Shown here in pieces: positions 1,831 through 27,213 of a stretch of DNA of 64,000 nucleotides (position 1 is its first letter; each line of letters begins with the position of its first letter). Both the position numbers and the translations under genes were made by a program. The notes beneath the pieces were generated by a model that ran no database searches, had not been told where the DNA came from, and saw only the letters and a program-made list of their open reading frames with translations. The DNA is from Dictyostelium discoideum. Taxonomy: Eukaryota. The DNA is taken from NCBI GenBank assembly GCA_000004695.1, contig CM000154.2, forward strand, positions 4,640,001 to 4,704,000, given 5' to 3'.

Positions 1831-1851
<21 letters not shown>

Positions 1852-2035: not shown

Positions 2036-2110
2036 TAAATCAATTTCATTTAAAGTTTGTAATATTGAACAAAACAAATGGGAATTAAAAAATGAATTTA
2101 ATGTTGATGA
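2036..2110 (+). pseudogene. Fragment homologous to the N-terminal region (FKVCNIEQNKWE...) of the 4529..5722 / 6192..7415 family, in inverted orientation
   Basis: DNA-level similarity to the reverse complement of about 5540-5610; encodes KVCNIEQNKWELKNEFNVDDFLKNE on the + strand. Confidence 0.5.
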
Positions 2111-2214
2111 TTTTTTAAAAAATGAATTATTAAAGTCATATTGACTCTTCATGTGATTTAATAATAAAAAACCAGTCTCTGGCTCATTACCAAAATTTGG
2201 CTTTTTTTTTATCC

Positions 2215-2330
2215 AATATTTTTGAACCAAAATGGTATGAATAAATTGTACTATTATACTGATTTTAACCTTGAATAAATTGGATTGGAGCTGATACAAA
2301 ACCATTTAAATGATAGTTTTATTTTGGTTT
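2215..2330 (-). pseudogene. Fragment homologous to the 3' coding end of the same family (roughly 85% nt identity to 6248-6350)
   Basis: Direct nucleotide comparison: ttttgaaccaaaatggtatgaataaattgtactattata... versus ttttgaaccgaaatgacctgaataaattgtactattata... Confidence 0.55.
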
Positions 2331-2424
2331 GAGATCTTTTTTTATTTTTTTTTTATTTGGTTTGTATTTTAAACTTAATTTTTTTATGATTTTTTTTTTT
2401 TATTTTTTTTTTCTTAATTTTTAA

Positions 2425-3418
2425 GTGATTTTTTTTATTTTATTTTTTTTTTTAATTTTGATGGTGGTTATACATTCTCATATAAAAAATTTCATACCAA
2501 AAAATTTCAAAAATAACTTTTTTTTTTTCAATCAACATAATTACAAAACAATGATATCCAATCAAAATACAATAAATAATATTGATAATAATAAAAAGTG
2601 TACACTTCACCCAAACAAAGATATAGTATTCTTTTGTTTGGATTGTAAATTAATACCATGTTGTATTCAATGTACATCAAGTAAAGGTGAACACCATGGT
2701 CATAGAACTGATACATTAGAATCAACATCAAATATTCTTTCATTAATGAATAATTTTAAAAATGATGTATATCAAAAAGTAGTTGAAAGAATAGAAAATA
2801 ATAAAACAATATTAAAACAATCAAATGATAAATACAATGATATTCAATCACAATTTGATATTAATAATAGTTTATTAAAAAGAGAAATTAGAAAAATTCA
2901 TGATATCATTTCATTCATAGAATTAGATATTAAAAAACAATTAGAAACAACCTATGAAAATAATACATTAATAAATACAATTATAACTTCTTCAACCAAT
3001 AATGATAATGAAATACTTTCAAAAATAATTAATAATAAAAATAAAAATAAAAATGAAAATGAAAATGAAAATGAAAATGAAAATGAAAATGAAAATGAAA
3101 ATAATATTACAATCATTGAAAAATTAAATCAAATTTTAACTATTAATGATCCACAACTTTATGATGTTGGAGATGATTTTGTTATTGATAGAGATACTAT
3201 TAAAATTATTAAACAATATCAACAATCATTAATAGTATTGAATAATAATAATAGTAATATTGATAATTCAAATAAATTAAATGAATACGATAATCAAATC
3301 ATTCATTTCCATTATCAAATAATTGATGATATTAAAAATAAATTAAAATCAATTTATACATTAAATAATTGTACATTTAAAATTGAAATCGATGAAAATA
3401 ATAATAGATTTTTTAAAT
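2425..3418 (+). CDS. B-box zinc-finger protein, exon 1 of a B-box/FNIP-repeat family gene (copy 1)
   Basis: B-box-like Cys/His cluster 'CTLHPNKDIVFFCLDCKLIPCCIQCTSSKGEHHGH'; a (NE)n tract; the exon ends ...FFKCK with a GTAAGC donor at 3419, as in the paralogous copies at 52.8 and 53.9 kb. Confidence 0.6.
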
Positions 3419-3539
3419 GTAAGCTTTAAACAGTTTTTTTTTTATAAATGATATTCACATTACTAACTTTCAAATATAGGGTAATTTAAAGTTTTTTATT
3501 TATAAAAAGGGTGATGTTCTTAAACCCAACGAAATTAAA

Positions 3540-4192
3540 TGAATAGCATTCGAAGACAATTTTAATATTTTATCAAAATTATAAAAAAATCAATTACCAC
3601 CAACTGTAATGCTATTGGATGGATTCAATCAAAAATTAACACCAGGTATATTACCGGATGGTGTTGAATCATTGTATTTGGGTAATATTAAACAAAAATT
3701 AATTATTGGCTCAATTCCTAATACTGTAACTCATGTCTTTTTAAAAGATGGATCAATTGAATATTATCACCAGGTATATTACCAGATGGTGTTGAATCGT
3801 TGTATTTAGGTGATATTAAACATCAATTAATAATTTGTTCAATTCCTAATACTGTAACTTATGTCTCTTTAAAAGATGGATTCAATCAAAAATTAATAAC
3901 AGGTATATTGCCAGATGGTATTGAATGGTTGGGTTTAGGTGACATAAAACAAGAATTAATAATTGGTTCAATTCCTAATACTGTAAAGAGTGTCTCTTTA
4001 AAAGATGGATTCAATCAAATATTATCACCAGGTATATTACCAGATGGTGTTGAATCGTTGGGTTTAGGTGATATAAAACATGAATTAATTATTGGTTCAA
4101 TTCCCAGTACTGTAAAGGAAGTATATGTTTCCAATGGCTTTAAACATCAAATTGAACCTTATTTTTCAGAAAATGTAAACATAATTAAATAG
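3540..4192 (+). pseudogene. FNIP-repeat region (about 8 repeats of LDGFNQKL..GILPDGVESL.LGDIKQELIIGSIPNTV), apparently disrupted
   Basis: FNIP repeat consensus visible. An in-frame TAA (aaattaTAAaaaaatc where the paralogs have GAA) precedes MLLDGFNQ, and a 1-bp deletion near 3780 shifts the frame (ORFs 3609..3809 and 3800..4192 sit in different frames). It cannot be joined in frame to exon 1. Confidence 0.5.
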
Positions 4193-4528
4193 AAAAATAA
4201 TATTTGGTTAAATTAAACAATTTCAATAAAAAAGATAATAAAAACAAAATTATAACTTCACAACTATATAATATTCCTTTTTTTAATAATTTCTTTTTTT
4301 AACCATCATCTGTTGAATAATAAAAAAATAAGCAAACTAAATAATATGTTGGATTTTAAACATTTTAAACTACTATATAAAGAAATAACTGGTGCCACAA
4401 CAAAAACACCAAAAAAAGAGGCAACGTTGAATACAATTTTAGAAAATCAAGAATATTCAAAAAATACATAGGTTAATCGATCTAAAAAAAAAGAAAAAAA
4501 AAAGGTCTAATTAAATTTAATTTTATTT

Positions 4529-5722
4529 TCATAAAAGTTTAGCAATAATAAACCAATCTAATGATGGTATTAATTTTGAATTATTATCTAAAAGTTTTGA
4601 ACCGAAATGACCTGAATAAATTATACTATTATATTCTTGATCTAAATCTTTGAGTAAAACTGGACATGATACAAATCCATTTGGAATTGAATCAGCATTA
4701 ACTCTTGGCCATGGAAAATCCTCTTCTTCCTCAAAAGAATATGATTCTGTATATTCATCATCATTATATTTACCATCATTATCGAATACACAAAAAGTAG
4801 CTAACCAGCCTGTTAAAACATTGCCACCAGATTGTTCTCTATAATCTACTATCTGATTCCACCAAGTTGTATCAGGATTCCCATTTACAGAATCAATGAA
4901 TTTATCAATCACTGGTAATAAATAAACTAACCATTTTTTAATTTCACCATTTTTATTATCGAATTGAATTAATTTTTCAACTCTTTCTTTTAAATTTATC
5001 CAATCATTAATTTCACCTAATAATGTTACTTCTGAAAGGCCACAATATGTTTTAAAAACAAAATTAAAATATTTCTTCATTGTTGACATTAATGCAATTG
5101 AAAATACAACTTTATCAGATTCTGTCGTAGTTGTAAAATCTGGTATAATTAAATCTTTAATTGATGGATCTTTAATATTTGATTGAATTTGATTTGACAT
5201 TTCAATGGTTAATTTATCAAAAGGTGCTTCTAATATTGGATATACTGTCTCAACTATTAATTCTTTTTTACCAGTAAAATCTACAAATTTTTCACGTAAT
5301 TCTTCAGAGTTTTTATTTACGTAGAATGATAGTTGAGTTAATATTGCCATCCAGATATTATCAGGACGTAGTACTAAATGATTGTGATTATTATAACTTT
5401 CCCAAGCAGAGTATACGAAACTATTTGAACCAAAACATGCTAAATCATCATTAATAATACTTGTTTGCAATACTTTAACTCCTATATCAATTCCATTTTT
5501 TAATGATGGATCCATTGTTTTAAAAGATTCAGCATTTAAAAAATCATTAACTTTAAATTTACCATTAATTTCCCATTTATTTTGCTCAATATTACAAACT
5601 TTAAATGAAATTGATTTATTAATTTCATCTCTTTTAATTTTAGAATTGTATTTAATTACTTTTGAATCATTGTTAACAAAACCACTATGACTTCTTACTC
5701 TATAATTAAAAATAGTATTCAT
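4529..5722 (-). CDS. Uncharacterised conserved protein (397 aa), tandem paralog 1
   Basis: Uninterrupted ORF, about 75% identical to 6192..7415 over the C-terminal roughly 300 aa (WESYNNHNHLVLRPDNIWMAILTQLSFY...WWNQIVDY...SLDWFIIAKLL). No recognisable catalytic motif. Confidence 0.7.
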   Translation of the reverse strand: MNTIFNYRVRSHSGFVNNDSKVIKYNSKIKRDEINKSISFKVCNIEQNKWEINGKFKVNDFLNAESFKTMDPSLKNGIDIGVKVLQTSIINDDLACFGSNSFVYSAWESYNNHNHLVLRPDNIWMAILTQLSFYVNKNSEELREKFVDFTGKKELIVETVYPILEAPFDKLTIEMSNQIQSNIKDPSIKDLIIPDFTTTTESDKVVFSIALMSTMKKYFNFVFKTYCGLSEVTLLGEINDWINLKERVEKLIQFDNKNGEIKKWLVYLLPVIDKFIDSVNGNPDTTWWNQIVDYREQSGGNVLTGWLATFCVFDNDGKYNDDEYTESYSFEEEEDFPWPRVNADSIPNGFVSCPVLLKDLDQEYNSIIYSGHFGSKLLDNNSKLIPSLDWFIIAKLL

Positions 5723-5961
5723 TTTTTGAGAATTATTATCATTACCTTTTATAAAAAAAAATAAAATAAAATAAAATATGGTGATTTAAAATCTGTTGAA
5801 AAAAAAAAAAAAAAAAAAATTAATTATTTTATTTTTTTTTTTTAATTCAAACTTGAAAAAAAAATAAGTTTGAAAAAAAAAAAAAAAAAAAAAAATTAAT
5901 TATTTTATTTTTTTTTTTTATTTTTTTTTTAATTCTCAAAACTAAAAATAATTAATTATTT

Positions 5962-6015
<54 letters not shown>

Positions 6016-6191
6016 GTAATGATAGTAATTCCCAAAATAATGGTATTAATTTCAAATTATTATCAATCTATGACATCATTTTATTTTGGCATTTAATTAG
6101 ATAAAACTTTAATAAAAATAGGATTAAATAAGTGTACACTTTAATTTTTTTTTTTATTTTTTAATAAGTTGGAATACTGGGAATTTTCATT

Positions 6192-7415
6192 TTATAAAAG
6201 TTTGGCAATAATAAACCAATCTAATGAAGGTATTAATTTTGAATTATTATCTAAAAGTTTTGAACCGAAATGACCTGAATAAATTGTACTATTATATTGA
6301 ATTTCACCTTGAATTAATTTGATTGGAGCTGATATAAAACCATTTGGAATTGAATCACCATTAACTCTAGGCCATTTATATTTTTTATCTTTATTACTCC
6401 ACCATAATATTAAATTATCATTGTATTTACCATCGATATCGAACACGCAAAAAGTAGCTAACCAACCTGTTAAAATCGATCCACCAGATGATGATTTATA
6501 ATCAACCATCTGATTCCACCAAGTTGTATCAGGATTCCCATTTACAGAATCAATGAATTTATCAATCACTGGTAATAAATAAACTAACCATTTTTTAATT
6601 TCACAATCTTTATTATCGAATTGAATTAATTTTTCAACTCTTTCTTTTAAATTTATCCAATCATTAATTTCACCTAATAATGTTACTTCTGGAAGACCAC
6701 AAGATGACATGCATTGATAATCGAAATATTTCTTCATTGTTGACATTAACGCAATTGAAAATACAACTTTATCAGATTCTGTTGTAGTTGTAAAATCTGG
6801 TATAATTAAATCTTTAATTGATGGATCTTTAATATTTGATTGAATTCGATTTGACATTTCAATTACAACTTCATCAAAAGGTGCTTCTAATATCGGATAA
6901 TCAGTCTCAACTATTAATTCTTTTTTACCAGTAAAATCTACAAATTTTTCACGTAATTCTTCAGAGTTTTTATTTATGTAGAATGATAGTTGAGTTAATA
7001 TTGCCATCCAGATATTATCAGGACGTAATACTAAATGATTATGATTATTATAACTTTCCCAAGCAGAGTATATAAAACTATTTGAACCACAACCAATATT
7101 TATTAAATCATCACCATCACCATCTGTAATACTTGTTTTTAAAACTTTATATTGTTCAGCATCATCACCTGTTTTTTCATTTTCCAAGTTTATAAATTCT
7201 TCAATACAAAATTTATCTTTTATTCCCCATGGACTTTTTTCAACTTCACAAACTTTAAATGTAATTGATTTATTATTTTCATCTCTTTTAATTGTTGAAT
7301 CATATTCAATTAATTTATATTTTGAATTATAAAATTCATTATCTTGATCATTTTCTTTGTTTTCATTATTTTTTTTTAATTTTTTGCTTGAAAACTTGGA
7401 AAATAATTTTTTCAT
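6192..7415 (-). CDS. Uncharacterised conserved protein (407 aa), tandem paralog 2
   Basis: Uninterrupted ORF paralogous to 4529..5722; it starts 250 bp downstream of the halogenase stop on the same strand. Confidence 0.7.
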   Translation of the reverse strand: MKKLFSKFSSKKLKKNNENKENDQDNEFYNSKYKLIEYDSTIKRDENNKSITFKVCEVEKSPWGIKDKFCIEEFINLENEKTGDDAEQYKVLKTSITDGDGDDLINIGCGSNSFIYSAWESYNNHNHLVLRPDNIWMAILTQLSFYINKNSEELREKFVDFTGKKELIVETDYPILEAPFDEVVIEMSNRIQSNIKDPSIKDLIIPDFTTTTESDKVVFSIALMSTMKKYFDYQCMSSCGLPEVTLLGEINDWINLKERVEKLIQFDNKDCEIKKWLVYLLPVIDKFIDSVNGNPDTTWWNQMVDYKSSSGGSILTGWLATFCVFDIDGKYNDNLILWWSNKDKKYKWPRVNGDSIPNGFISAPIKLIQGEIQYNSTIYSGHFGSKLLDNNSKLIPSLDWFIIAKLL

Positions 7416-7477
7416 CTAAAAATTGTTATATTTATAAACATTATAATGTGAAAAAAAAAAAAATAAATAAAAAAAAG

Positions 7478-7517
<40 letters not shown>

Positions 7518-7664
7518 AATCAAAAATTTTCGATGATTGTTTTTTGTGAAAAAAAAGATATTTTTTTTTTTTTATTTTTATTTTTTTATTTATTTTTATT
7601 TTTATTTTTATTTTTTTCTTTTTATTTTTTATTTTTTTATTTTTTTTTATTTTTTTAAAAAAAA

Positions 7665-9476
7665 TTAATACTTCCAATCAACAATATTATTTTGATTATA
7701 GTTATAAGATTTAAAATCTTTTTGAATTTTATCATAATAATCATTATTTGGAGTACCAATCATATTAAAAGAATGTAATTTAGAAAGGAAATAAAATTTA
7801 GAGAATCTATAGGTTGTATTTGATAAAGATTTGAAGAAAGATGAATTCCATAATGCACCAATACCATAGACACGATAATATAGTTTACAAATGATTAGAG
7901 ATAGATAAAAATTGGACCAAGATAAACATTTTGGTAAATTTAATCTTTTATGACCATACTTTGCAAGTGAGAGAGCATGATCATAGTCCCAAGATGAAGT
8001 TGGACTCCAATCACCCAATAATTGACCACCTCTATGATTATCCATGAATCCAATGTTTATAGAGTTTTCATTAGCATAATCCAAAGTTGCCAATAATTGA
8101 TTACGTAATGCTAAACCATTTTCATGATCAGTAGTGAAATGATCCGAGAAAATTGGACAAAGATGATATTTACCAATGTAAGCAGGCAATAATATGGAGA
8201 AATAAGTTGAAGATTCAAAATAAATTCTCCAACTCATAATTGAAGCATTACCTAAATGATTTGAATGATCTTTGATTAAATGATTATTAATTTGTGTTAC
8301 ACATCTAATTAATTTATCGAATGCTTCAACACGTCTATGATAGTCATTGGCAGCATTTGAAAGTTTAAACTTTAACATTTCAGTAAGACACTCGATCTCC
8401 ATAGCAATCATTACCATACCAGTTGAATAGAAAGGATCGAAAATTGCAGCAGCATCACCAATTACACACCAATTATTTTTAGAGAAAAAGGTTTTACTTG
8501 TATGTGCAAGTTTTGGCCAACGATGAAAGTCAACAATTTCACCACTTTTAATTAGATTATAGAGTAGTTTTTGATTCTTTTCAAGGAATGACATGAATTT
8601 ATCCAATGAATTTAATTGAGAAGGTTGAATTTTATCACGATGATATGAAACACCAATACTGTAATCACGAGAGCCTCTTTCCAAGGGGATCATCCAAATC
8701 CAATAGCCTGGACCAAAGAAATGATTGGTATCGTAGGTCCAAGAGCATGTCACATCTTGACTTTTGAAATCGAATAAACTTCTCTCTGTGTTTTTCACTC
8801 TCACCCAAGTGCTTGCATTATCCAGACCAAATAAATGCTTTGGATCCTTTAAAATGTTATCGGTACGAGATCCAACAGTAAAGTTTCTACCACTTGCATC
8901 CACAATATAATCAGTTGTCAATGTTATACGTTCAATTGATTGCTGTAATTTGAAATCGGCACCAGATTCAACTTCACTTAGAATTTCAACATCGATTGAT
9001 TTCATATCATCGTTATCTAAATTATCAACATTTCTAACTCTACCATGGTAGTAGACTGCGCCTTGGGCAATTACCATTTTCAATAGATCACGCTCAATCT
9101 TGCAACGGTTCAATTGAAAAGCTTGGATATCTGGATTCTTTACTGCCCATGTACTATAGTAGTCTTCAATGGTATCAGTCTTTGATAATTCTCTTGGCCA
9201 ATGAAATTGTAATGAAAATTTTGGTGGATGATTCTCTATTAAATAATCTTGTAACTCTAATTCTTTGGCGAAAAACATTGCACTAACTTCAACTGTTGAT
9301 TCTCCAACTTTATAATCTTCATCTAAATTATCTCTTCTCTCTGATCTTGGTTCTATCACTGCAATCCTACCAGATAATTCTGGCATTTTTAATAATAAAT
9401 GTCTAGTTGCTGATAATCCTGCTATACCACCACCAATTATAATAATATCATAATGATTAATAATATTTGTATCCAT
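7665..9476 (-). CDS. chlA: Flavin-dependent halogenase (603 aa)
   Basis: N-terminal FAD dinucleotide fold 'IIIGGGIAGLSATRH'; the halogenase-specific WxWxIP motif as 'GYWIWMIPL'; a C-terminal 'GDAAAIFDPFYSTGM' FAD motif; single exon. The symbol is a hypothesis based on adjacency to a Steely PKS. Confidence 0.75.
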   Translation of the reverse strand: MDTNIINHYDIIIIGGGIAGLSATRHLLLKMPELSGRIAVIEPRSERRDNLDEDYKVGESTVEVSAMFFAKELELQDYLIENHPPKFSLQFHWPRELSKTDTIEDYYSTWAVKNPDIQAFQLNRCKIERDLLKMVIAQGAVYYHGRVRNVDNLDNDDMKSIDVEILSEVESGADFKLQQSIERITLTTDYIVDASGRNFTVGSRTDNILKDPKHLFGLDNASTWVRVKNTERSLFDFKSQDVTCSWTYDTNHFFGPGYWIWMIPLERGSRDYSIGVSYHRDKIQPSQLNSLDKFMSFLEKNQKLLYNLIKSGEIVDFHRWPKLAHTSKTFFSKNNWCVIGDAAAIFDPFYSTGMVMIAMEIECLTEMLKFKLSNAANDYHRRVEAFDKLIRCVTQINNHLIKDHSNHLGNASIMSWRIYFESSTYFSILLPAYIGKYHLCPIFSDHFTTDHENGLALRNQLLATLDYANENSINIGFMDNHRGGQLLGDWSPTSSWDYDHALSLAKYGHKRLNLPKCLSWSNFYLSLIICKLYYRVYGIGALWNSSFFKSLSNTTYRFSKFYFLSKLHSFNMIGTPNNDYYDKIQKDFKSYNYNQNNIVDWKY

Positions 9477-11656
9477 CTTTTTTTTAAAAAAAAAAAAAAA
9501 GTTTTAAATTATTTATTTATTTATTTATTTATTTTTTTTAAAAAATTATTTTTAATTATTATTTTTTTTTTAAATTTATTTGTTTAAAAAAAAAAAAAAG
9601 TTTAAATTATTTTTAATTATTTTTTTTTTTTTTTTTTTTTTTCAATTTTTTTTTAATTTAAATAATAGTAATAAATAAATAAATTAAAAATATAATAAAT
9701 AGAATTTAGTATATTTGAAAATGAAAATAATAATAATAAAAAAAAATAAATTTTTCTTTGAATTTATAAAAAAAAAAAATAAAAAAAAAAAAAATATAAA
9801 TTAAAAATAAAAATAAAATTAAAATAACATATGTTAGTATCATTTTTTTTTAAAGAATGTTTCTGTGTTTGGTGATGATTTTTTTTTGTTGGGGGTGAAA
9901 AATAAAATAAAAAAATAAAAAAATTAAAATTATTTTCATTGGACCACCACAATGGGGGTGATTATTTTTTTTTTTTTTTTTTTTTTTTTAAAGATTTTGG
10001 TATTTATAAAAAATGTATATACAATACCCTTTGAGTTTATTAAAAATTTAATAATTTAAAAATAATAATAATAATAATAATTTTTTTATTTATTTATTTT
10101 AAAATAGAAAAAAAAAAAAAAATAATTTTATAATATTTTAAAAAATATTATTATTATTATTTTTGTTATTTCTAAATTTATTTAATGCACACCGAGATAA
10201 AATTAATTTTTTTTTTTTTTTTTATTTTTATAAAAAAAAAAGAAAATTTAAAAAATTATAATTTTTTTAAGTACAATAATATTGTTTAATAGTAATACTT
10301 AATTTTACCACATATTAAATTATTTAAAAACCATTGAATTTAAAAAAATTAATTTATAGATAAAAAAATTTAAATTTTTTTTGATTTTTTTAAATACCAA
10401 TTATTTATTTATTTTAAAAGTTGTCGATTTTTTACCTTTTAAAGTGTATTATTAAACAATAGTAAAAAAAAGGATTTCTTAATATTTTGAAGGTTAAAGA
10501 AAATTTGAATTGACCAATTTGAAGTTTATTAATAAAGATTATTCACAAGATAGTAATATATTCCTTTTATACTTAATCATAACTTTCAACGAAAAAGGAT
10601 TTGTTTTTTTTTTTAAAAAGACCAATCCCAATTAAAAATTGACCAATATTAATTTTTAAAAAAAAAGAAAAAAATTAAAAAAATAAATATAATTATTATT
10701 ATAAACTATTTTAAAAAACATTTATTAAGAATTATATCATTAATCTTTTTGAAGTATACAAGTAATTAAAATTATTTTTATTTCCCCCCCCCCCCCAACC
10801 TATTTTTTTTTATATTATAATAGATCAAAAAAGTAATCTTTTTTTTTTTTTTTTTTTTTACACAAATATGTCAATAATTTCATTTTGAACTATGAAAAAA
10901 TTTTGAGTTTTATAATAAATTAATATAGTTCTCGGCGTTTATTTTTTAAAAAAAAAAAATTGTTGTTTCAATTAAAATAATATTTATAAATATGAGTATG
11001 AATCTATTATTAATTATTTTTTAAAAAATATATTTTATATTTTTTAAAAAAAAAAAGTTTTAACTATAGATAAAATTTGGGGTCATTATTAAAATAAAAA
11101 TGAAAAAAATTAAAAAAAAATAAAAACCAAAGTATATCAATTTCATTGGATGATCTAAAACAATATTTATTTAAAATTAAGCCTCTTTTTAGTGAAATAC
11201 CGATTCTTAAAATAAATAATATTTATGTATCGGCTTCCTTTTATAAATTTTTTTTTTTTTTTTTTTTATTTTTCCTTTATTTTTTTTTTAATTTTTTTTT
11301 TTATATAAATATATGATTTTATTCATTTTTATAAAATCAATTCATTTAAAACCTATCAATAATTATAATAAGGGAATAATAATAATTTAATAAAAAAATA
11401 AAAAAATAAAAAATAGATATAATTATACATTTTAGTAGTCAATCTTTAATTTATAAAATAACAATTTTTTATTTATTTATCTGTTTATTTAAAAAATCAT
11501 TAAAACCGATATTTATTGTAAGGAAATTTTTTTTTATTTTAATCAAATCTAATAATAAGTGCAATGATTGATTTTTGTGATTTTTCAGATTTTTTTTTTT
11601 TTTTGATATTTTTTCCATAAACATATTTTTTTTTTTTTTTTTTTTTTTCTTTAACA

Positions 11657-11689
<33 letters not shown>

Positions 11690-11844
11690 AATTTTTTTTT
11701 TTTTTCCTTTATTAATTAAAAAAAATTATTAAAATTATTAAAATTATTAAAATTAAATTAAAAAAATTAAAAAAAAAACTTTTTTTTTTTTTGGGTTGGG
11801 GGGGGGGGTAAAAAACCTCTTTGTTTTCAAACAGATCTAACACT

Positions 11845-11900
<56 letters not shown>

Positions 11901-12247
11901 GATTAATTTTTTTTTATTATATTAATTTATTACATTAATTTTTTTTTTTTTATTCATTTTTTTATTATAAAATAGAATTGTTTAAAACATTTTCTTTTTT
12001 CAATTATATTTTTTTTAATAATTAATTATTATTATACTTATAAAATACATTTTTTCTATTTCAAATTATAATATTTATTATATATTATTAAAAATAATTA
12101 CAAAAAAAAAAAAATAATAAAATAAAAAAATAATTAAATTAACCACCCCCCCCACCAAAAAAAGAAAAAAAAAAAAAATAAACTATTAAAAGATTAGTGT
12201 AGTAATAATAATAATAAAAATAATAATAAAAAATATATATTTAGAAT
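9477..12247. promoter_or_regulatory. Divergent intergenic/promoter region shared by the halogenase (-) and PKS (+) genes
   Basis: 2.77 kb with no ORFs, flanked by divergently oriented start codons. Contains the homopolymers C12 (about 10786), G10 (about 11806) and a C-rich tract (about 12144). Confidence 0.6.
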
Positions 12248-14298
12248 ATGAACAACAACAAAAGTATAAACGATTTAAGTGGTAATAGCAACAACAACAT
12301 TGCAAACAGTAATATTAATAATTATAATAATTTAATTAAAAAGGAACCAATTGCAATTATTGGAATTGGTTGCAGATTCCCAGGAAACGTTTCAAATTAT
12401 TCCGATTTTGTTAATATAATTAAAAATGGTAGTGATTGTTTAACTAAAATTCCAGATGATAGATGGAATGCTGATATAATTTCAAGAAAACAATGGAAAT
12501 TAAATAATAGAATTGGCGGTTATTTAAAGAATATCGATCAATTTGATAATCAATTTTTTGGAATCTCACCAAAAGAAGCTCAACATATTGATCCACAACA
12601 AAGATTATTATTACATGTAAAGTATTAATTAATTTTATTTTTTTAAATCTATTTGGAAAGTAAAAAAAAAAAAAAACATATATAGATAAAAATAAATCTT
12701 TAAAATTTATTTTTATCTATATATGTTTTTTTTTTTTTTTTTTTTTTTTTTACTGAAAATTTTTATTTTTTTTTTATTTTTTTTTATTTTTTTTTTTTTT
12801 ACTTTCCAAATTTTTTTATTTTTTTCTAATTTTTTTTTTTTTTTTTTTTTTTTATTATTTCATTTTATTAAATAGCTTGCAATTGAAACATTAGAAGATG
12901 GAAAAATTAGTTTAGATGAAATTAAAGGTAAAAAAGTTGGAGTTTTTATTGGATCATCAAGTGGAGATTATTTGAGAGGATTTGATTCAAGTGAAATTAA
13001 TCAATTCACAACACCAGGAACCAATTCATCATTTTTAAGTAATAGATTATCCTATTTTTTAGATGTTAATGGACCAAGTATGACAGTGAATACAGCATGT
13101 TCAGCATCAATGGTAGCAATTCATTTAGGATTACAATCACTATGGAATGGTGAAAGTGAATTGTCAATGGTTGGTGGAGTGAATATTATTAGCTCACCGC
13201 TACAATCGTTGGATTTCGGTAAAGCAGGTTTACTAAATCAAGAGACCGATGGCAGGTGCTACTCTTTTGATCCACGTGCATCTGGATATGTTAGATCCGA
13301 AGGTGGAGGAATACTACTATTGAAGCCTTTATCCGCTGCCCTCAGAGACAATGATGAAATCTATTCATTACTTTTAAACTCTGCAAACAACTCCAATGGT
13401 AAAACACCAACTGGTATCACCTCACCAAGATCACTATGTCAAGAGAAATTGATTCAACAATTACTAAGAGAATCGTCAGACCAATTTAGTATTGACGATA
13501 TTGGCTATTTCGAATGTCATGGTACAGGCACACAAATGGGTGACCTCAATGAAATCACAGCAATTGGTAAATCGATTGGTATGTTAAAATCTCACGATGA
13601 TCCATTGATCATTGGTAGTGTGAAAGCCTCGATTGGCCATCTTGAGGGTGCAAGTGGTATTTGTGGTGTCATTAAATCAATCATTTGTTTAAAAGAGAAA
13701 ATCTTACCACAACAATGTAAATTCTCTTCTTATAATCCAAAAATACCATTTGAAACTTTAAATTTAAAAGTTTTAACAAAAACCCAACCTTGGAATAATT
13801 CAAAAAGAATTTGTGGTGTAAATTCATTTGGTGTTGGTGGTTCAAATTCAAGTTTATTTTTATCATCATTTGATAAATCAACAACAATAACAGAACCAAC
13901 AACAACAACAACAATTGAATCATTACCATCATCGTCATCATCTTTTGATAATTTATCAGTATCAAGTTCAATATCAACAAATAATGATAATGATAAAGTT
14001 AGCAATATTGTTAACAATAGATATGGCAGTAGTATTGATGTTATTACGTTATCAGTTACATCACCAGATAAAGAAGATTTAAAGATTAGAGCAAATGATG
14101 TTTTAGAATCAATTAAAACTTTAGATGATAATTTTAAAATTAGAGATATTTCAAATTTAACAAATATTAGAACAAGTCATTTTTCAAATAGAGTTGCCAT
14201 CATTGGTGATTCAATCGATTCAATTAAATTAAATTTACAATCATTTATTAAGGGTGAAAATAATAATAATAAATCAATAATATTACCTTTAATTAATA

Positions 14299-14331
<33 letters not shown>

Positions 14332-16012
14332 GTAGTGGTAGTAGTAGTAGTAGTAGTAATAATAATAATATTTGTTTTATATTTTCAGGTCAAGGTCAAC
14401 AATGGAATAAAATGATATTCGATTTATATGAAAATAATAAAACATTTAAAAATGAAATGAATAATTTTAGTAAACAATTTGAAATGATTTCAGGTTGGTC
14501 AATTATTGATAAATTATATAATAGTGGTGGTGGTGGTAATGAAGAATTAATTAATGAAACTTGGTTAGCACAACCATCAATTGTTGCAGTTCAATATTCA
14601 TTAATTAAATTATTTTCAAAAGATATTGGTATTGAAGGTTCAATTGTGTTGGGACATAGTTTAGGTGAATTGATGGCAGCTTATTATTGTGGTATCATTA
14701 ATGATTTCAATGATCTATTGAAATTGTTATATATTAGATCAACACTTCAAAATAAAACCAATGGTAGTGGAAGAATGCATGTTTGTTTATCTTCAAAAGC
14801 AGAGATTGAACAATTGATCTCTCAATTAGGATTCAATGGTAGAATCGTAATTTGTGGTAATAACACCATGAAATCATGTACAATCTCTGGTGATAATGAA
14901 TCAATGAATCAATTCACAAAGTTAATATCATCACAACAGTATGGTTCGGTGGTGCATAAAGAGGTTCGTACAAATTCAGCATTTCATTCTCATCAAATGG
15001 ATATTATCAAAGATGAATTCTTTAAATTGTTTAATCAATACTTTCCAACCAACCAAATCAGTACAAATCAAATCTACGATGGTAAATCATTTTATTCAAC
15101 TTGTTATGGTAAATATTTAACACCGATTGAATGTAAACAATTATTATCATCACCAAATTATTGGTGGAAAAATATCAGAGAATCAGTATTATTCAAAGAA
15201 TCAATTGAACAAATCTTACAAAATCATCAACAATCTTTAACATTTATTGAAATTACTTGTCATCCAATTTTAAATTATTTTTTAAGTCAATTATTAAAAT
15301 CATCAAGTAAATCAAACACATTACTTTTATCAACACTTTCAAAGAATTCAAATTCAATTGATCAATTATTAATATTATGTTCAAAATTATATGTTAATAA
15401 TTTATCATCAATTAAATGGAATTGGTTTTATGATAAACAACAACAACAGCAATCAGAAAGTTTAGTATCATCAAATTTTAAATTACCAGGTAGAAGATGG
15501 AAACTTGAAAAATATTGGATTGAAAATTGTCAAAGACAAATGGATAGAATTAAACCACCAATGTTTATATCATTAGATAGAAAGTTATTCTCTGTTACAC
15601 CATCATTTGAAGTTAGATTAAATCAAGATAGATTTCAATATTTAAATGATCATCAAATTCAAGATATTCCATTGGTACCATTTTCATTCTATATTGAATT
15701 GGTTTATGCTTCAATATTTAATTCAATCTCAACTACCACCACCAACACCACAGCATCAACAATGTTTGAAATTGAAAATTTTACAATTGATAGTTCAATT
15801 ATAATTGATCAAAAGAAATCAACTTTAATTGGTATTAATTTTAATTCTGATTTAACTAAATTTGAAATTGGTAGTATTAATAGCATTGGTAGTGGTAGTA
15901 GTAGTAATAATAATTTTATTGAAAATAAATGGAAAATTCATTCAAATGGTATAATTAAATATGGTACAAATTATTTAAAATCAAATTCAAAATCAAATTC
16001 ATTTAATGAATC

Positions 16013-16047
<35 letters not shown>

Positions 16048-19000
16048 AATGTTTTAAATCATTTAATTCAAATGAATTTTATAATGAAATTATTAAATAT
16101 AATTATAATTACAAGAGTACTTTTCAATGTGTTAAAGAGTTTAAACAATTTGATAAACAAGGTACATTCTATTATTCAGAGATTCAATTCAAAAAGAATG
16201 ATAAACAAGTCATTGATCAATTATTATCAAAACAATTACCAAGTGATTTTAGATGTATTCATCCATGTTTATTAGATGCAGTTTTACAATCTGCTATCAT
16301 ACCAGCAACAAATAAAACTAATTGTAGTTGGATACCAATTAAAATTGGTAAATTATCTGTAAATATACCTTCAAATTCATATTTTAATTTTAAAGATCAA
16401 TTATTATATTGTTTAATTAAACCATCAACATCAACATCAACATCACCATCAACATACTTTTCATCTGATATTCAAGTATTTGATAAAAAGAATAATAATT
16501 TAATTTGTGAATTAACAAATTTAGAATTTAAAGGTATTAATTCATCATCATCATCATCATCATCATCATCTACAATAAATTCAAATGTTGAAGCTAATTA
16601 TGAATCAAAAATTGAAGAAACTAATCATGATGAGGATGAGGATGAAGAATTACCATTAGTTTCAGAATATGTTTGGTGTAAAGAAGAATTAATTAATCAA
16701 TCAATTAAATTTACAGATAATTATCAAACTGTTATTTTCTGTTCAACAAATTTAAATGGTAATGATTTATTAGATAGTATTATAACAAGTGCATTAGAGA
16801 ATGGTCATGATGAGAATAAGATATTCATTGTTTCACCACCACCAGTCGAATCGGATCAATATAATAATCGTATCATTATAAATTATACAAATAATGAATC
16901 TGATTTCGATGCTTTATTCGCAATCATTAATTCAACAACTTCAATCAGTGGAAAGAGTGGTTTATTTTCAACACGTTTTATCATTTTACCAAATTTTAAT
17001 TCAATTACTTTTTCAAGTGGTAATTCAACTCCATTAATAACTAATGTCAATGGTAATGGTAATGGTAAGAGTTGTGGTGGTGGTGGTGGTAGTACAAATA
17101 ACACAATTTCAAATTCATCATCATCAATATCAAGTATTGATAATGGTAATAATGAAGATGAAGAAATGGTATTAAAATCATTTAATGATTCAAATTTATC
17201 ATTATTCCATTTACAAAAATCAATTATTAAAAATAATATTAAAGGTAGATTATTTTTAATTACAAATGGTGGTCAATCAATTTCAAGCTCAACTCCAACC
17301 TCAACATATAATGATCAATCATATGTTAATCTATCACAATATCAATTAATTGGTCAAATTAGAGTATTTTCAAATGAATATCCAATTATGGAATGTTCAA
17401 TGATTGATATTCAAGATTCAACTAGAATTGATTTAATTACTGATCAATTAAATTCAACAAAGTTATCAAAACTTGAAATTGCATTTAGAGATAATATTGG
17501 TTATAGTTATAAATTATTAAAACCATCAATTTTTGATAATTCTTCATTGCCATCATCATCATCAGAAATAGAAACAACAGCAACAACAAAAGATGAAGAA
17601 AAAAATAATTCAATAAATTATAATAATAATTATTATAGAGTTGAATTATCTGATAATGGTATAATTTCAGATTTAAAGATTAAACAATTTAGACAAATGA
17701 AATGTGGTGTTGGTCAAGTTTTAGTTAGAGTTGAAATGTGTACTTTAAATTTTAGAGATATTCTTAAATCATTAGGTCGTGATTATGATCCAATTCATTT
17801 AAATTCAATGGGTGATGAATTCTCTGGTAAAGTCATTGAAATTGGTGAAGGTGTTAATAATTTATCAGTTGGTCAATATGTTTTTGGTATAAATATGTCA
17901 AAATCAATGGGTAGTTTTGTTTGTTGTAATTCTGATTTAGTATTTCCAATTCCAATTCCAACTCCATCATCATCATCATCATCAAATGAAAATATTGATG
18001 ATCAAGAAATTATTTCAAAATTATTAAATCAATATTGTACAATACCAATTGTATTTTTAACATCATGGTATAGTATTGTAATTCAAGGTAGATTAAAAAA
18101 AGGTGAGAAAATTTTAATACATTCAGGATGTGGTGGTGTTGGTTTAGCAACTATTCAAATTTCAATGATGATTGGTGCTGAAATTCATGTTACAGTTGGT
18201 TCAAATGAAAAGAAACAATATTTAATCAAAGAGTTTGGCATTGATGAGAAGAGAATCTATTCATCAAGATCATTGCAATTCTATAATGATTTAATGGTGA
18301 ATACTGATGGTCAAGGTGTTGATATGGTTTTAAATTCATTGTCTGGTGAATATTTAGAGAAATCAATTCAATGTTTATCCCAGTATGGTAGATTCATTGA
18401 AATTGGTAAAAAAGATATTTACTCGAATTCAAGTATTCATTTAGAACCATTTAAAAATAATTTATCATTTTTCGCAGTTGATATTGCACAAATGACAGAA
18501 AATCGTAGAGATTATCTAAGAGAGATAATGATCGATCAGCTATTACCATGTTTTAAAAATGGTTCTTTGAAACCATTGAATCAACATTGTTTCAATTCAC
18601 CTTGTGATCTTGTTAAAGCCATTAGATTCATGTCATCCGGTAATCATATTGGTAAAATCTTAATCAATTGGTCCAATTTAAATAATGATAAACAATTCAT
18701 TAATCATCATTCAGTTGTTCATTTACCAATTCAATCATTTTCTAATAGATCAACTTATATTTTCACTGGTTTTGGTGGTTTAACTCAAACATTATTAAAA
18801 TATTTTTCAACAGAATCTGATTTAACAAATGTTATAATAGTTAGTAAAAATGGTTTAGATGATAATAGTGGTAGTGGTAGTGGTAATAATGAAAAATTAA
18901 AATTAATTAATCAATTAAAAGAATCTGGTTTAAATGTATTGGTTGAAAAATGTGATTTGTCATCAATTAAACAAGTTTATAAATTATTTAACAAGATTTT

Positions 19001-21413
19001 TGATAATGATGCTAGTGGTAGTGATAGTGGTGATTTTAGTGATATTAAAGGTATTTTCCATTTTGCATCATTGATTAATGATAAAAGAATTTTAAAACAT
19101 AATTTAGAATCATTTAATTATGTTTATAATAGTAAGGCTACTAGTGCTTGGAATTTACATCAAGTTTCATTAAAATATAATTTAAATTTGGATCATTTCC
19201 AAACTATTGGTTCAGTCATTACAATTCTTGGTAATATTGGTCAAAGCAATTACACTTGTGCAAATAGATTCGTTGAAGGTTTAACTCATTTACGTATTGG
19301 TATGGGTTTGAAATCAAGTTGTATTCATTTAGCTTCTATACCTGATGTTGGTATGGCTTCAAATGATAATGTTTTAAATGATTTAAATTCAATGGGTTTT
19401 GTGCCATTCCAATCACTCAATGAAATGAATTTAGGTTTTAAGAAATTATTATCATCACCAAATCCAATCGTTGTACTTGGTGAAATTAATGTTGATAGAT
19501 TCATTGAAGCAACTCCAAACTTTAGAGCAAAAGATAATTTCATTATTACTTCATTATTTAATCGTATTGATCCTTTACTATTAGTAAATGAAAGTCAAGA
19601 TTTTATTATTAATAATAATATTAATAATAATGGTGGTGGCGGCGATGGTAGTTTTGATGATTTAAATCAATTAGAAGATGAAGGACAACAAGGATTTGGT
19701 AATGGTGATGGTTATGTTGATGATAATATTGATAGTGTTTCAATGCTATCTGGAACATCATCTATTTTTGATAATGATTTCTATACTAAATCAATTAGAG
19801 GTATGCTTTGTGATATTTTAGAATTAAAAGATAAAGATTTAAATAATACAGTATCATTTAGTGACTATGGTTTAGATTCATTACTATCAAGTGAATTATC
19901 AAACACAATTCAAAAGAATTTCAGTATATTAATTCCAAGTTTAACTTTAGTTGATAATTCAACCATTAATTCAACTGTTGAATTAATTAAAAATAAATTA
20001 AAGAATTCAACAACTTCTTCAATTTCTTCAAGTGTATCTAAAAAAGTTTCATTTAAAAAAAATACTCAACCATTAATTATACCAACAACAGCACCAATAT
20101 CAATAATTAAAACACAAAGTTATATCAAATCTGAAATTATTGAATCATTACCAATTAGTAGTAGTACAACTATTAAACCATTGGTATTTGATAATTTAGT
20201 TTATAGTAGTAGTAGTAGTAATAATAGTAATTCTAAAAATGAATTAACATCACCACCACCAAGTGCAAAGAGAGAATCAGTTTTACCAATAATATCAGAA
20301 GATAATAATAGTGATAACGATTCGTCAATGGCAACAGTAATTTATGAAATTTCACCAATTGCTGCACCATATCATAGATATCAAACTGATGTATTAAAAG
20401 AGATTACACAATTAACACCACATAAAGAGTTTATTGATAATATTTATAAGAAATCAAAGATTAGATCAAGATATTGTTTCAATGATTTCTCTGAGAAATC
20501 AATGGCTGATATTAATAAATTGGATGCAGGTGAAAGAGTTGCACTCTTTAGAGAACAAACTTATCAAACAGTTATCAATGCAGGTAAAACAGTGATAGAG
20601 AGAGCTGGTATTGATCCAATGTTAATTAGTCATGTCGTTGGTGTCACTAGTACTGGTATTATGGCACCCTCTTTCGATGTGGTACTCATTGATAAATTGG
20701 GTCTATCAATTAATACTAGTAGAACTATGATCAATTTCATGGGTTGTGGTGCCGCTGTCAATTCAATGAGAGCTGCCACTGCTTATGCTAAATTAAAACC
20801 TGGTACTTTTGTATTGGTGGTTGCAGTGGAGGCATCGGCAACCTGTATGAAATTCAATTTCGATAGTCGTAGTGATCTATTATCACAAGCTATCTTTACC
20901 GATGGTTGTGTAGCTACGTTGGTAACTTGTCAACCAAAATCATCATTAGTTGGTAAATTGGAAATCATCGATGACTTGTCCTATTTAATGCCAGATTCAA
21001 GAGACGCTTTAAATCTATTCATTGGTCCAACTGGTATTGATTTAGATTTACGTCCTGAATTACCAATTGCAATCAATAGACATATCAATAGTGCTATTAC
21101 AAGTTGGTTGAAAAAGAATTCACTTCAAAAGAGTGATATCGAATTCTTTGCTACTCATCCTGGTGGTGCTAAAATCATTTCTGCCGTTCATGAAGGGTTA
21201 GGTTTATCACCAGAAGATCTATCAGATTCTTATGAAGTTATGAAAAGATATGGTAATATGATAGGTGTTTCAACTTATTATGTTTTACGTAGAATTTTAG
21301 ATAAAAATCAAACATTACTTCAAGAAGGTTCTTTAGGTTATAATTATGGTATGGCTATGGCCTTTTCACCTGGTGCTTCAATTGAAGCAATTTTATTTAA
21401 ATTAATTAAATAA
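12248..21413 (+). CDS. stlB: Steely-type hybrid polyketide synthase (type I KS-AT-DH-ER-KR-ACP fused to a C-terminal type III PKS). Exons 12248..12616 and 12876..21413 give 2968 codons.
   Basis: KS: TACSASMV (active-site Cys), ECHGTGT, GSVKASIGHLEGASG. AT: GHSLGE. ER: IHSGCGGVGLATIQ. KR Rossmann: FTGFGGLTQ. ACP: DYGLDSLLSSEL. Type III PKS: MGCGAAVNSMR (Cys), FFATHPGGAKII (His), GNMIGVST (Asn). The intron donor cat|gtaaag (12617) and acceptor aatag| (12875) restore the KS motif RLLLH|LAIETLEDG. The symbol stlB rather than stlA is inferred from the computed length (2968 codons, which I recall as the length of Steely2) and from halogenase adjacency. Confidence 0.8.
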
Positions 21414-21419
21414 AATTAA

Positions 21420-21530
<111 letters not shown>

Positions 21531-21721
21531 TAATAATAAATAATATAATAATAAATAATATAAAACAAATAAAAATTATTAAATTTCATTTATTTAATAA
21601 ATTAAAAATAAAAATAAAATTCTATTTTATTTCTTTATTTTTTTTTTTTTTCGAGCTAACTTATCTAGATTATTTCTTCGATTCCTCCCTCTATTATGAT
21701 CAATACTAAAAATTCGAAAAT

Positions 21722-22420: not shown

Positions 22421-25400
22421 ATGATGAATAAAATAGTTTATTTATTATTTTTTTTTATAATTTTAAATGTCGGATTTGTGTATTCAAAATTTGACATATT
22501 TGATATAACACCACAAAATAAACAAATTTCATACCCAGAAAGTTACTCAAGCCACCAATGCGCCATTTATAAATATATTTTAGTAAAAAATACAACACAA
22601 CCAGAAAGTATAGATAATATTAATCCAGCGAGTTTCTTTTTAACTTCCAATAGTGATAGTGCTATTTATTACCACTATTTGGTATTGGAGTTTGGAAAAG
22701 AACAACAAATCAATTTTACTGTTAATGGAATGGATACTGAAACTGGTTATCTAACAGTTAATTGTATTTGTAAAGGTAATTTATTTTTTATTGTTTTTTA
22801 TTTTATTGTTTTTTCACCCTTTTTCATCCTCCATTTTTTATTAAAGTACTAGTAACAGTTATTTGTTATCAACCAAATTTCAAAAAAAAAAAAAAAAAAA
22901 AAAAAATTATCTAATTTGGTAAAACAATAAATAAAAACATATTAATTTAGTTTTATTTTTTTTTTTAAAAAAAAGAGATAAATGTTTCATTGATTACAAT
23001 AGATATTATACAAAGCGTAACATGGAGTGATCATTTAAAGTATTCATCAATTGTTAGATTAAATGGAGTTCCAGATGAAAGTCCAAATCCAGGTGTTGAT
23101 GGTGTAATATTAAATAGATTGGGAAATTCATTATTCCAAATTCTTTATAAAGAAATTTATTACACCAAAATATCACCAAACCAACTCCAATGGGATATTG
23201 ATTTAGAATTTACAAATAAACAAATTTTAAAAGTTTCAGTTCCATTAAATCAATCAAGTAAGTTATTATTTTTTTTTTATCTCTCTCCAAAACTAGGATA
23301 TCCAATTATTAACCATACTTTAAAATTAAAATTAAACAAAAAGATATTGGACAAATTAATAATGTATTTGGATTTGAAGTTTATAAACAAAATAATTATC
23401 AATATAATGGTTTTTTTGGAGGTGGTTTATTATTTAAATCAAATTCTTCTATTCAAAGACCAATTTATACAGTTCTTTCACTCGTGAGTCCTTATTATTT
23501 TACAATGACACCTATTTCTGGAGTATTTCAAAATGTAACATATTATTTAAACCTTTTCCCAATTGCACCATTTAATCAAAGTTTTTCATTAAACTCTCAA
23601 AATGAAGATCTTTCTTTTGAAATTAAATATGAAACTTTTATAGAATTTATAAGTAAGTTTTCTTTCTTTTTTTTTTTTTTTTTTTTTTATCTAAAATTTA
23701 AAAAATTAATAATATGTATTTAAAATTTAATTTAAACTAGGTCAATCTGTTTCTGCATATTCACCAGCCACTCTTAGATATGATAACAGCTCTAGTTCAA
23801 TTGTATTTTATACAGGTTATTTTGATGGTGTTTCTCCTTATGACTTTAGATCATTTAAATGTAAGTCAAAAGGATTATTTGATTATGGAATAAACTATGC
23901 CTTCCCATTTGGATTTGTAAGTGGTAATAACGAGAATTCAGGAATGGGTATTTCAATACCAATGTCTCCAATTTCATCAAAGGATAAATTTGAATTCACA
24001 TATGATAGTATTAATGTTCCAATTGATGTTTTTTATACATTAGGTAAGTTTATTAAAAAAAAAAAAAAAAAAATTAGATAAATCAGTTTTATTAATATCC
24101 ATTAAATTTAATTTTTTTTTAAAAAAAAAGTTGATTCAAAACCATATCCATATATAACATCAATGGAAAAGATAAATATATATGGATTTAAATATATAGT
24201 AATTATAAATGCATATGATTCTTTTGGTGTAAAATATATCCATACAAGTGTGAATGGAGCATATATTAGAATTGGAACAGAATCATTGGTAAATGGAGAT
24301 AATAAAAATGGAGTTTGGGAATTTTTACATGATGGAGTTAAATTGGGAAGTGATTACGTTAATTCATTTACCATTGAAAATTTTTACGATTTAAAACAAG
24401 AATATCAACCATCCTATCCTTTTTCAACTTCAAATATTGACCAAACATTAGTTTTACCAGAAATTAAATTAAGTGGTATGTATTATTTAATTTAATTTAT
24501 AAAAATAATCTTAATTTAACTTTTATGATTTATTAATTTAATTTAATTTTTTTAAAAAAAAAAAGATAAAATTAATTTTTATAATGATATAAAAGATATT
24601 ACATTTAAGTTTAATAATGTTCATATTACAAATCAAAGTGTAGATAATATTTTATATTTTACATTTGATAATATTGAAAATTATAAAGATTTATCTATTG
24701 GTTTTTCATTAAATGACCCAAAATCATTAAAAGATATGAATTATCAAAGAGATATTAATAATCAAGTAAATTTTAATGATTATACATTTGCTCAATGGGA
24801 TGAATCAAATAGTAGATTTAGTGTTATGTTTAAAATGCCAGCAAATGTTATTCCAGGTGTATTAGATTGGTCATTAACTTTTTCAAAATATTATTCACTT
24901 ATTAGTACTGCTTTACCAGATCAATATCAATTAAAAGTAGTTTCAGAAAATATTGATATCATTGGTCCAATTGTAACAAAGGTTATTAAAAAAACTCCAA
25001 CTGATTTCGGAACTTTAAATGTTGGTTGGTTATTAACAATTGAAGATGAAATTAATGGTTTACTAAATGGTTTTATTACAATTAGAGGTGTTTTAGATTC
25101 ATCAGTATACAATTTCACAATTACACCATTAACAGCAGTAATTGGAAGTGGTGATAAATGGAAAGCAGATTATTTAATTTCAATTCCTTTAGATGGTAGT
25201 TTAAATAATTATGGTTGTATTATTCAAGATTATAGAATTTCAGATTTAAAACTTGTTGATTCATTTGGTAATACAAATTCTTATAACCATAATGTTAAAG
25301 CTAATGATGGTTCTTTAGACTATTCTTTATTTCAACGTCCAAATCCATTTTACTTATTTGATTTAAGCGAATTGACATTTTCAATTGATAATACAATGTG

Positions 25401-27213
25401 CAATGCTGTTTTTGATTCAACTGGACCAAAATTAACTTCTTTCCAAATTTCAAAAACAAAAATCGATGTAGGTTCACAAGATAGATCAATTACCTTTGAT
25501 TTTGCTGCACAAGATTTAGATAGTGGTTTGAAAGATGCTCAATTTCCAATTGTTTATTTAACAACTCAAAATCTTGATACTGCTCAATGTGTTTCTACTA
25601 TTGTTTCAAAAACAGATACATCTACTAATTATACATGTACAATTGATGTACCATTAGGTTTTTCTTATCCATTAGGTTTCACAGTATCAGTTTATGGTTT
25701 CATTAATAATGGTGGTTACTATTCTGGTTTCCCAACTGATGTAATTAAATCAATTTCACCAAATGCTTGGTATGTTTCAACAGATCAATATTCAATGGAT
25801 ATTCCAATCATTACAAGTTCAACAGTAATAACAAATCAAGGTGGTAATTTATGGTTAGGTGGTAGAGGTTTTAATTTTGTAGATGAAATTAAAATTACTT
25901 ACTCACCATCCAATATAGTATATAAACAAGTTTCAACTAATAAATTTAATAGTGCTTTATTAGTTTCTGATATTATTTCAACAAACGATCCATTTACAAT
26001 TCAACTCACAAATTCATCACCATTAAAACAATCAAATATATTTACAATTAATCCAGTATTATACTTTTTTAATTATACTGATCCAATTCCAACTACTTCT
26101 CCAACTCCAACTACTTCTCCAACTGTAGCCCCAACTAAATCACCAATTCCAACTAATCCTCCACAAAAATGTAAAGGTAATCCAGAATGTGGTGGAGAGG
26201 ATAAAGGTGCTTGTACAAGTAAAGGTTGTATTTGTTTCACTCCATGGTTTGGTCCGGATTGTAGTTCAAAATTAGTTGAAGTTGTACCACCATTAATTAA
26301 TGGTACTGGTCCATCTGTTGAAATCCCAACTCCTGGAGGAGAAGGTGGTTCATCAACAACAAGTGGAGGTTTACCACCACAAATAATTTATAAAACATTA
26401 GTTTCAGTTGTTTCATTAAGAGAATTAGATTTTAATGGTAAAGCAATAAAAACTATACCATTAAATTCATGGGAATATACTGAAATAAACTCAACAATTA
26501 GTCGATATGATACAATATTAACAATTGAGGGTAAACAAGAAAAAGTTAATGTAACTACAGTAATGCAGTGGTTTGATAAGAGTTCAACAATAGTTTTCGC
26601 AGGTCAACAATTAAAAATGAATCCATCAACTATTAAATTCAATATTGACATTTCAAGTTACCCTTTTTCACAAGCATTAAATCAACTTCAATTAGTAATG
26701 TCTGCAACATTAATTTCATCTGGTAATGATAATAGTGATATATGTTCATCAAAATCATTTGGTGATACAACAAATGGCGATGATTCAAACTTTATAAAAT
26801 TGCAAGTTGATGATCATTCTGTTTATGGTAGATTCTTAAAGAGAGCAATCGTTGATGATATCATTATTAGTGTTGATAATGTTTTATTAGATAGTTCATT
26901 AAATTCAATTGAATCAAATACACATACTCAACAATCATTTATTGGTATTAATATTCCACATTTTAGTAGACATGTTTCAATTGATCCTGATTTTTCACTT
27001 TTAATTGATCAAAATCCTGCATCAAAGTCAAGTGAAAATTCAATATGTTCAAATGATTCTGGTTTATCAAAAGGTCAAATTGCTGGTATTGTAATTGGTG
27101 CCACTGGATTTGCAGCAGTTGTATTTGTTAGTGCACTTTATTCAATTCACAAAACTAGATCAAACAAAAAAATGATTTCCAATATCTCAAAAAAATTAGA
27201 AACAATTAAATAA
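22421..27213 (+). CDS. Multi-exon gene for a secreted/type I membrane glycoprotein with an EGF-like module and a C-terminal TM anchor (about 6 exons)
   Basis: N-terminal signal peptide MMNKIVYLLFFFIILNVGFVYS. Exon ends at GTAATT/GTAAGT donors (about 22776, 23258, 23652, 24043, 24475) with aaag|/tag| acceptors. Last exon 24567..27213 has a Cys-rich EGF-like 'CKGNPECGGEDKGACTSKGCICFTPWFGPDCS', a Thr/Pro linker, a TM segment 'IAGIVIGATGFAAVVFVSALY' and a basic tail. Exon boundaries are approximate. Confidence 0.45.

Follow-up and report, generated by a model that had tools for sequence, protein, structure and literature searches.

Which polyketide synthase (PKS) is encoded at positions 12248..21413 of a 64,000-nt stretch of Dictyostelium discoideum DNA (assembly GCA_000004695.1, contig CM000154.2, positions 4,640,001 to 4,704,000; the whole stretch is hereafter the window), and do its type I and type III parts belong to one and the same gene? 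An earlier interpretation made from the letters alone (the sequence-only reading) had modelled two exons and 2968 codons, placed a full reducing type I module and a type III PKS on one polypeptide, and preferred Steely2 (StlB) to Steely1 (StlA), whose length it gave as 3147 aa. The exon model proved correct to the base. Indeed, the spliced exons form an uninterrupted frame of 2968 codons that ends in TAA, and all 2968 residues of its conceptual translation are identical, end to end, to the curated StlB protein (STLB_DICDI, Q54FI3, UniRef100_Q54FI3, XP_635518.1, EAL62021.1, DDB_G0290853, 'Polyketide synthase 37').

We therefore regard it as practically certain that the locus is stlB (DDB_G0290853) of D. 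discoideum AX4, which encodes the hybrid polyketide synthase Steely B of 330 kDa. Residues, exon structure and the neighbouring gene chlA are the same as those of StlB/Steely B/Pks37 of AX4, with zero differences, and five proteins encoded in the window exactly match AX4 entries. There is no sequence-level evidence that contradicts this identity. The gene is already known and nothing about it appears new: StlB is said to have been first described in 2006 by Austin et al. and has since been biochemically characterised and engineered. Knock-outs, tagging, products and processing were also published previously (PMC9489281, PMC2726288). The computed mass of the protein is 329.9 kDa, which, with a 21-kDa tag added, agrees with the band of ~352 kDa reported for a C-terminally TAP-tagged StlB knock-in (PMC9489281). 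The case has calibration value, since raw sequence was enough to arrive at the exact model of a 9-kb eukaryotic gene and at the right paralogue.

Gene model and the single intron

The stlB model consists of the following parts.

12248..12616, + strand: exon 1, 369 nt, aa 1-123, with an Asn-rich N-terminus and the start of the ketosynthase (KS), ending in ...DPQQRLLLH
12617..12875, + strand: the single intron, 259 bp, GT..AG, phase 0, 7% GC
12876..21413, + strand: exon 2, 8538 nt, aa 124-2968, with TAA at 21411..21413

Several in-frame stops lie close upstream of the ATG at 12248. Without splicing, the open reading frame (ORF) of exon 1 runs over 12248..12628, and read-through into the intron halts after three codons (HVKY, then a stop); stops are present in all three frames of the intron. 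The RLLLH/LAIETLEDG junction spans aa 119-132, within the KS, precisely where the sequence-only reading had a 259-bp intron splitting this domain. With exon 2 alone, the N-terminal KS Pfam match covers profile positions 97-252 with 143 bits, while the spliced protein matches positions 2-252 in one stretch with 244.5 bits. Since the profile match is unbroken after splicing, the proposed junction restores the domain without insertion or deletion. Annotated orthologue models have a phase-0 intron at the homologous place, which reads RLLLH/ITIE in P. violaceum, RLILQ/ISME in C. fasciculata and RLLLH/LAIE in D. discoideum. Collectively, the read-through stops, the continuity of the KS, the intron position in orthologues and the identity to the curated protein support the predicted intron at 12617..12875. 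The 3' region of stlB has been reported to be intron-free (PMC9489281).

The intron is composed largely of poly-T and a 53-nt tandem repeat (12726..12870), and an (AAT)46 microsatellite occupies 21422..21560, beginning 9 nt past the stlB stop. The G+C content of the window is 21%, typical of Dictyostelium.

Domain organization of the type I module

A Pfam scan of the full protein, in which all reported domains score above curated cut-offs, detected every domain of the predicted type I module.

12344..13724, + strand, interrupted by the intron: KS, aa 33-406; PF00109 1.7e-72, PF02801 1.3e-26
Within it, + strand: KS catalytic residues Cys198 (NTACSA, 13098..13100), His338 (HGTGT) and His378 (SIGH), conserved in orthologues
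14376..15368, + strand: acyltransferase (AT; Acyl_transf_1), aa 624-954; PF00698 1.4e-41; GHSLGE with Ser718, conserved
15597..16535, + strand: dehydratase (DH; PKS_DH_N/PS-DH), aa 1031-1343; PF21089 and PF14765; catalytic His1049
17712..18665, + strand: enoylreductase (ER; ADH_N/ADH_zinc_N), aa 1736-2053; PF08240, PF00107 and PF13602
18753..19334, + strand: ketoreductase (KR), aa 2083-2276; PF08659 1.7e-30
19794..19988, + strand: acyl carrier protein (ACP; PP-binding), aa 2430-2494; PF00550 3.1e-12

A complete reducing module resembling a fatty acid synthase (FAS) is thus present on one polypeptide, in the order KS-AT-DH-ER-KR-ACP. The nucleotide-binding motif of the ER (HSGCGGVG, aa 1871-1878) is conserved, as is Tyr2249 of the KR, whose Rossmann motif TGFGGL occupies aa 2087-2092. 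The GLDSL motif of the ACP, with the phosphopantetheine Ser2458 at 19878..19880, is kept in all orthologues. No methyltransferase domain was detected by Pfam between DH and ER in the full protein. The same domain order and the same Pfam families are found in animal fatty acid synthase and in fungal highly reducing (HR) iterative type I PKSs, and the HR-PKS ACP model PF23297 also matches StlB. StlB differs from both in that a type III PKS replaces the C-terminal release domain.

The type III domain and its closest relatives

The C-terminal part of the protein has the following organization.

19989..20351, + strand: ACP-to-type III linker, aa 2495-2615; 19-29% identity to orthologues
20352..21410, + strand: type III (chalcone-synthase-like) PKS, aa ~2616-2968; PF00195 1.5e-17, PF02797 5.2e-20
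Within it, + strand: catalytic triad Cys2747 (20745..20747, MGCGAAVNS), His2884 (21156..21158, FFATHPGGAKI) and Asn2917 (21255..21257, GNMIGVST)

The domain scan, which had been suggested as a check of the sequence-only reading, found this C-terminal PKS through both PF00195 and PF02797, and all the catalytic motifs quoted in that reading, including the type III Cys, His and Asn, lie at the coordinates it implied. The Chal_sti_synt_N and _C matches span aa 2636-2965 in an uninterrupted frame with the ACP, and the stretch that separates the two contains neither a stop codon nor a shift of frame. The type III domain makes up the C-terminal 12% of the 2968-aa protein and is not a free-standing enzyme. 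Its triad aligns with the GC(A/G)A, HPGG and GNM motifs of solved type III enzymes and is invariant in orthologues. Comparison with solved structures gave the following matches.

PDB 4b0n, Ectocarpus siliculosus PKS III: 3.7e-60
PDB 7cb3, chalcone-synthase-like protein: 9e-49
PDB 1ted, M. tuberculosis PKS18: 2e-48
PDB 2h84, type III domain of Steely1 (StlA): 2.2e-35, rank fifth

The closest solved relatives, Ectocarpus PKS III and M. tuberculosis PKS18, have the triad and motifs in common with StlB. Unlike StlB, they are free proteins of ~400 aa without an ACP or type I module. These two enzymes use CoA-linked starters. The starter of StlB is instead proposed to come from the fused ACP (PMC9489281).

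Orthologues in other dictyostelids

Relatives were collected with HMMER in an exhaustive search for which the type III domain was the query; a word-indexed search gave only 10 hits, and the fused orthologues of other dictyostelids were not among them. Four other long proteins carry a related C-terminal type III domain, with 50-55% identity.

P. violaceum KAF2076631.1: StlB orthologue, 2798 aa
C. fasciculata XP_004352294.1: StlB orthologue, 2784 aa
A. subglobosum XP_012749626.1: StlB orthologue, 2673 aa
EukProt entry: StlB relative, 2481 aa

According to Pfam, the P. violaceum and C. fasciculata proteins have the same domain order as StlB. The P. violaceum orthologue shares 43% identity with StlB over nearly its full length, and those of C. 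fasciculata and A. subglobosum share 39-52% in separate aligned blocks. Conservation was assessed in a multiple alignment of StlB with the orthologues of these three other dictyostelid genera. The KS Cys/His/His, the AT Ser, the DH His, the ER GGVG, the KR Tyr, the ACP Ser and the type III Cys/His/Asn are all invariant. The three orthologues are 62-69% identical to StlB in the KS, 54-63% in the ER and 49-55% in the type III domain, with the lowest values in the linker.

Several other proteins related to the type III domain were encountered. A stand-alone type III PKS of 459 aa, 47% identical to the type III domain of StlB, is encoded in C. fasciculata at GL883029.1 10001..11380, and no type I PKS was found upstream of it at this locus; it could be a paralogue that became detached from the type I part, or else a copy similar to the ancestor before fusion. 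A similar 383-aa type III PKS entry exists for Synstelium polycarpum. Contig Ga0606064_0590 (1..14112, 37% G+C) of the JGI metagenome 3300062347 contains a 2467-aa KS-AT-DH-ER-KR-ACP-type III gene. It also has a short 5' exon that is missing from the annotation (MTSLDIAIVGLSCRFPGANNK), and a GT intron comes after this exon. With 3.5e-89 for 2h84, its type III domain makes the gene a Steely of the StlA type from a eukaryote, presumably a dictyostelid. In the green alga Cymbomonas tetramitiformis, the 4818-aa protein KAK3233920.1 gives 12 separate type III PKS domain matches, and could be either a tandem array of type III PKS genes that gene calling has joined or a genuine multi-domain protein.

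Alternative readings of the locus

StlA (Steely A, Steely1) of the same organism has the same KS-AT-DH-ER-KR-ACP-type III architecture, and the type III domain described here does match the solved StlA domain, 2h84. The gene could then be stlA, making MPBD or pyrones and not the DIF-1 precursor. Such an assignment is already refuted by the exact database match to STLB_DICDI, and the structural comparison points the same way: the Ectocarpus and M. tuberculosis enzymes both score better than 2h84, which comes only in fifth place, whereas the genuine StlA-type domain of the metagenome contig matches it at 3.5e-89. Furthermore, chlA is adjacent, as published for stlB. The possibility of stlA is thus vanishingly small, and the preference for StlB in the sequence-only reading was well founded. 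The two steely genes have been called 'only distantly related' and their products differ, StlA making MPBD or pyrones and StlB making THPH (PMC3188802, PMC2726288, PMC9489281). As judged by sequence comparison, the C-terminal domain is of the StlB type and not of the StlA type. It is likewise extremely improbable that two separate genes, one for a type I PKS and one for a free-standing type III PKS, were wrongly merged in one model. Related stand-alone type III PKSs do exist in dictyostelids, for instance the 459-aa C. fasciculata enzyme, and a free type III fragment of ~43 kDa is found in stalk cells (PMC9489281). On the other hand, the frame stays open all the way from the ACP into the type III domain, the four other dictyostelid proteins carry the same fusion, and the western blot of the C-terminal tag knock-in reveals the ~352-kDa protein (PMC9489281).

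The stlB model might also be right in outline and wrong in detail, at the start codon, at a splice site or through an extra small intron, which we consider highly improbable. Two further D. discoideum assemblies encode StlB versions of 2984 and 2992 aa, and the P. violaceum and C. fasciculata models include a second small intron, after ...NS/NGKTP, that is absent from D. discoideum. However, the longer versions differ from AX4 by scattered substitutions and by indels in low-complexity linkers, with only three substitutions in the type III domain, and their lengths reflect the divergence of strains and not splicing. Where the orthologues have their second intron, the D. discoideum sequence continues in frame and is conserved. 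Moreover, the first ATG is preceded by in-frame stops, and the junction yields the conserved DPQQRLLLH/LAIE spacing together with the unbroken KS match. Some limits apply to the reading of stlB as a functional two-exon hybrid synthase. The splice junction is based on homology, conservation and identity to the curated model. The DH motif HQIQDIPLVP (15651..15680, aa 1049-1058) has Asp in place of the Gly of HxxxGxxxxP; this +4 position is G, S or K in other dictyostelid orthologues, in which the His is invariant, and such a variable position is not known to be essential. Finally, the hand-off of a hexanoyl chain from the ACP to the type III domain is graded as 'proposed' in the literature.

Antisense open reading frames

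The sequence-only reading had dismissed the antisense ORFs inside the gene as spurious. Two of the intervals it listed, 16883..17104 and 19325..19543, are exact, but 13681..14017 (337 nt, not a multiple of three) merges an ORF of 99 aa at 13681..13980 with one of 95 aa at 13730..14017, which overlap but differ in frame. Four antisense ORFs of 72 aa or more were observed, against 2.3 +/- 1.4 in codon shuffles of the coding sequence; at least four such ORFs arose in 16% of the shuffles, and the longest reached at least 99 aa in 52%. Their number and length are thus matched by the shuffles, as expected for this codon composition, and their translations are of low complexity. A coding potential of these ORFs was rejected on both grounds: they are chance products.

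The chlA gene and the genomic neighbourhood

The genes and spacer on the upstream side of stlB are as follows.

4529..5722 and 6192..7415, - strand: tandem DUF4419 paralogues of 397 and 407 aa (DDB_G0290821, DDB_G0290823), directly downstream of chlA
7665..9476, - strand: chlA, flavin-dependent halogenase, 603 aa; exact match to Q54FI4/XP_635556.1/DDB_G0290825
9477..12247, no strand: chlA-stlB intergenic region, 2771 bp, 12% GC, between divergent start codons

The chlA product combines a PF04820 Trp_halogenase match with an N-terminal FAD-binding motif. The chlA and stlB genes have been described as adjacent, with a common promoter region, and the stlB promoter amplicon of 2831 bp includes 30 bp of chlA coding sequence (PMC9489281). 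The 2771-bp spacer fits the size of this amplicon, and the head-to-head arrangement is the one published for stlB. In P. violaceum, a chlA orthologue with 71% identity also lies head-to-head with the StlB orthologue. No halogenase was found beside the C. fasciculata StlB orthologue at the GL883025.1 locus. There, a gene for an AMP-binding (acyl-activating) enzyme (18596..20233, - strand) is convergent with the orthologue and directly downstream of it, and three ComC_SSD genes lie upstream. In the D. discoideum window, a ComC_SSD gene is located downstream of stlB, at 24736..27213.

The two DUF4419 genes could be imagined as members of an extended stlB-chlA cluster, with a late step such as the dibenzofuran coupling of CDF-1 or the processing of StlB. 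This is very unlikely. No DUF4419 gene adjoins the P. violaceum halogenase, and cluster membership is thus unsupported by synteny with this species. Consecutive accession numbers suggest that DDB_G0290823 also adjoins chlA in three further assemblies, from D. discoideum or cf. discoideum. Elsewhere in the window, a 1529-aa ORF without a Pfam match or an exact database entry (37869..42458, + strand) is probably part of a spliced gene. The GC skew is strongly negative at 38-40 kb, in the region of this ORF, and similar at 32-33 kb and 46-48 kb. A tRNA scan of the 64-kb window found none.

Function and processing of StlB

The StlB sequence holds all the parts for iterative, fully reducing chain building on the ACP and, in addition, a type III condensing and cyclising domain; these roles are predicted from its motifs. 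In the proposed pathway, the FAS-like part would assemble a hexanoyl unit while it is bound to the ACP and pass it straight on to the type III domain (PMC9489281). The latter is reported to add three malonyl-CoA and to cyclise the chain to the acylphloroglucinol THPH (PMC9489281, PMC2726288), which is in turn chlorinated by ChlA and O-methylated by DmtA to give DIF-1 (PMC9489281, PMC2726288, PMC3188802). StlB is reported to make the backbone of this stalk-inducing signal, and loss of stlB abolishes DIF-1 (PMC9489281, PMC2726288). DIF-1 is needed for formation of the basal disc and the lower cup and for slug integrity (PMC9489281, PMC2726288, PMC3188802). Indeed, slugs of the stlB-null mutant break up, and in its fruiting bodies the basal disc and the greater part of the lower cup are missing, defects that are rescued by 100 nM DIF-1 (PMC2726288).

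Stalk cells express StlB late in development, and its cleavage releases the type III domain (42.7 kDa, ~43 kDa; 64 kDa as the TAP-tagged fragment); on its own, the released domain supports production of CDF-1 to CDF-3, chlorinated dibenzofurans with antibacterial activity (PMC9489281). Counted back from the C-terminus by computed mass, 42.7 kDa reaches to about aa 2580. We infer from this fragment mass that the late cleavage site would lie near this position, in the poorly conserved linker that joins the ACP to the type III domain.

A direct fusion of an FAS-like type I PKS with a type III PKS has been reported only from Dictyostelia (PMC9489281, PMC12767764). This fusion, restricted to Dictyostelia in the literature, and the head-to-head pairing with a tailoring halogenase make stlB a biologically notable gene.

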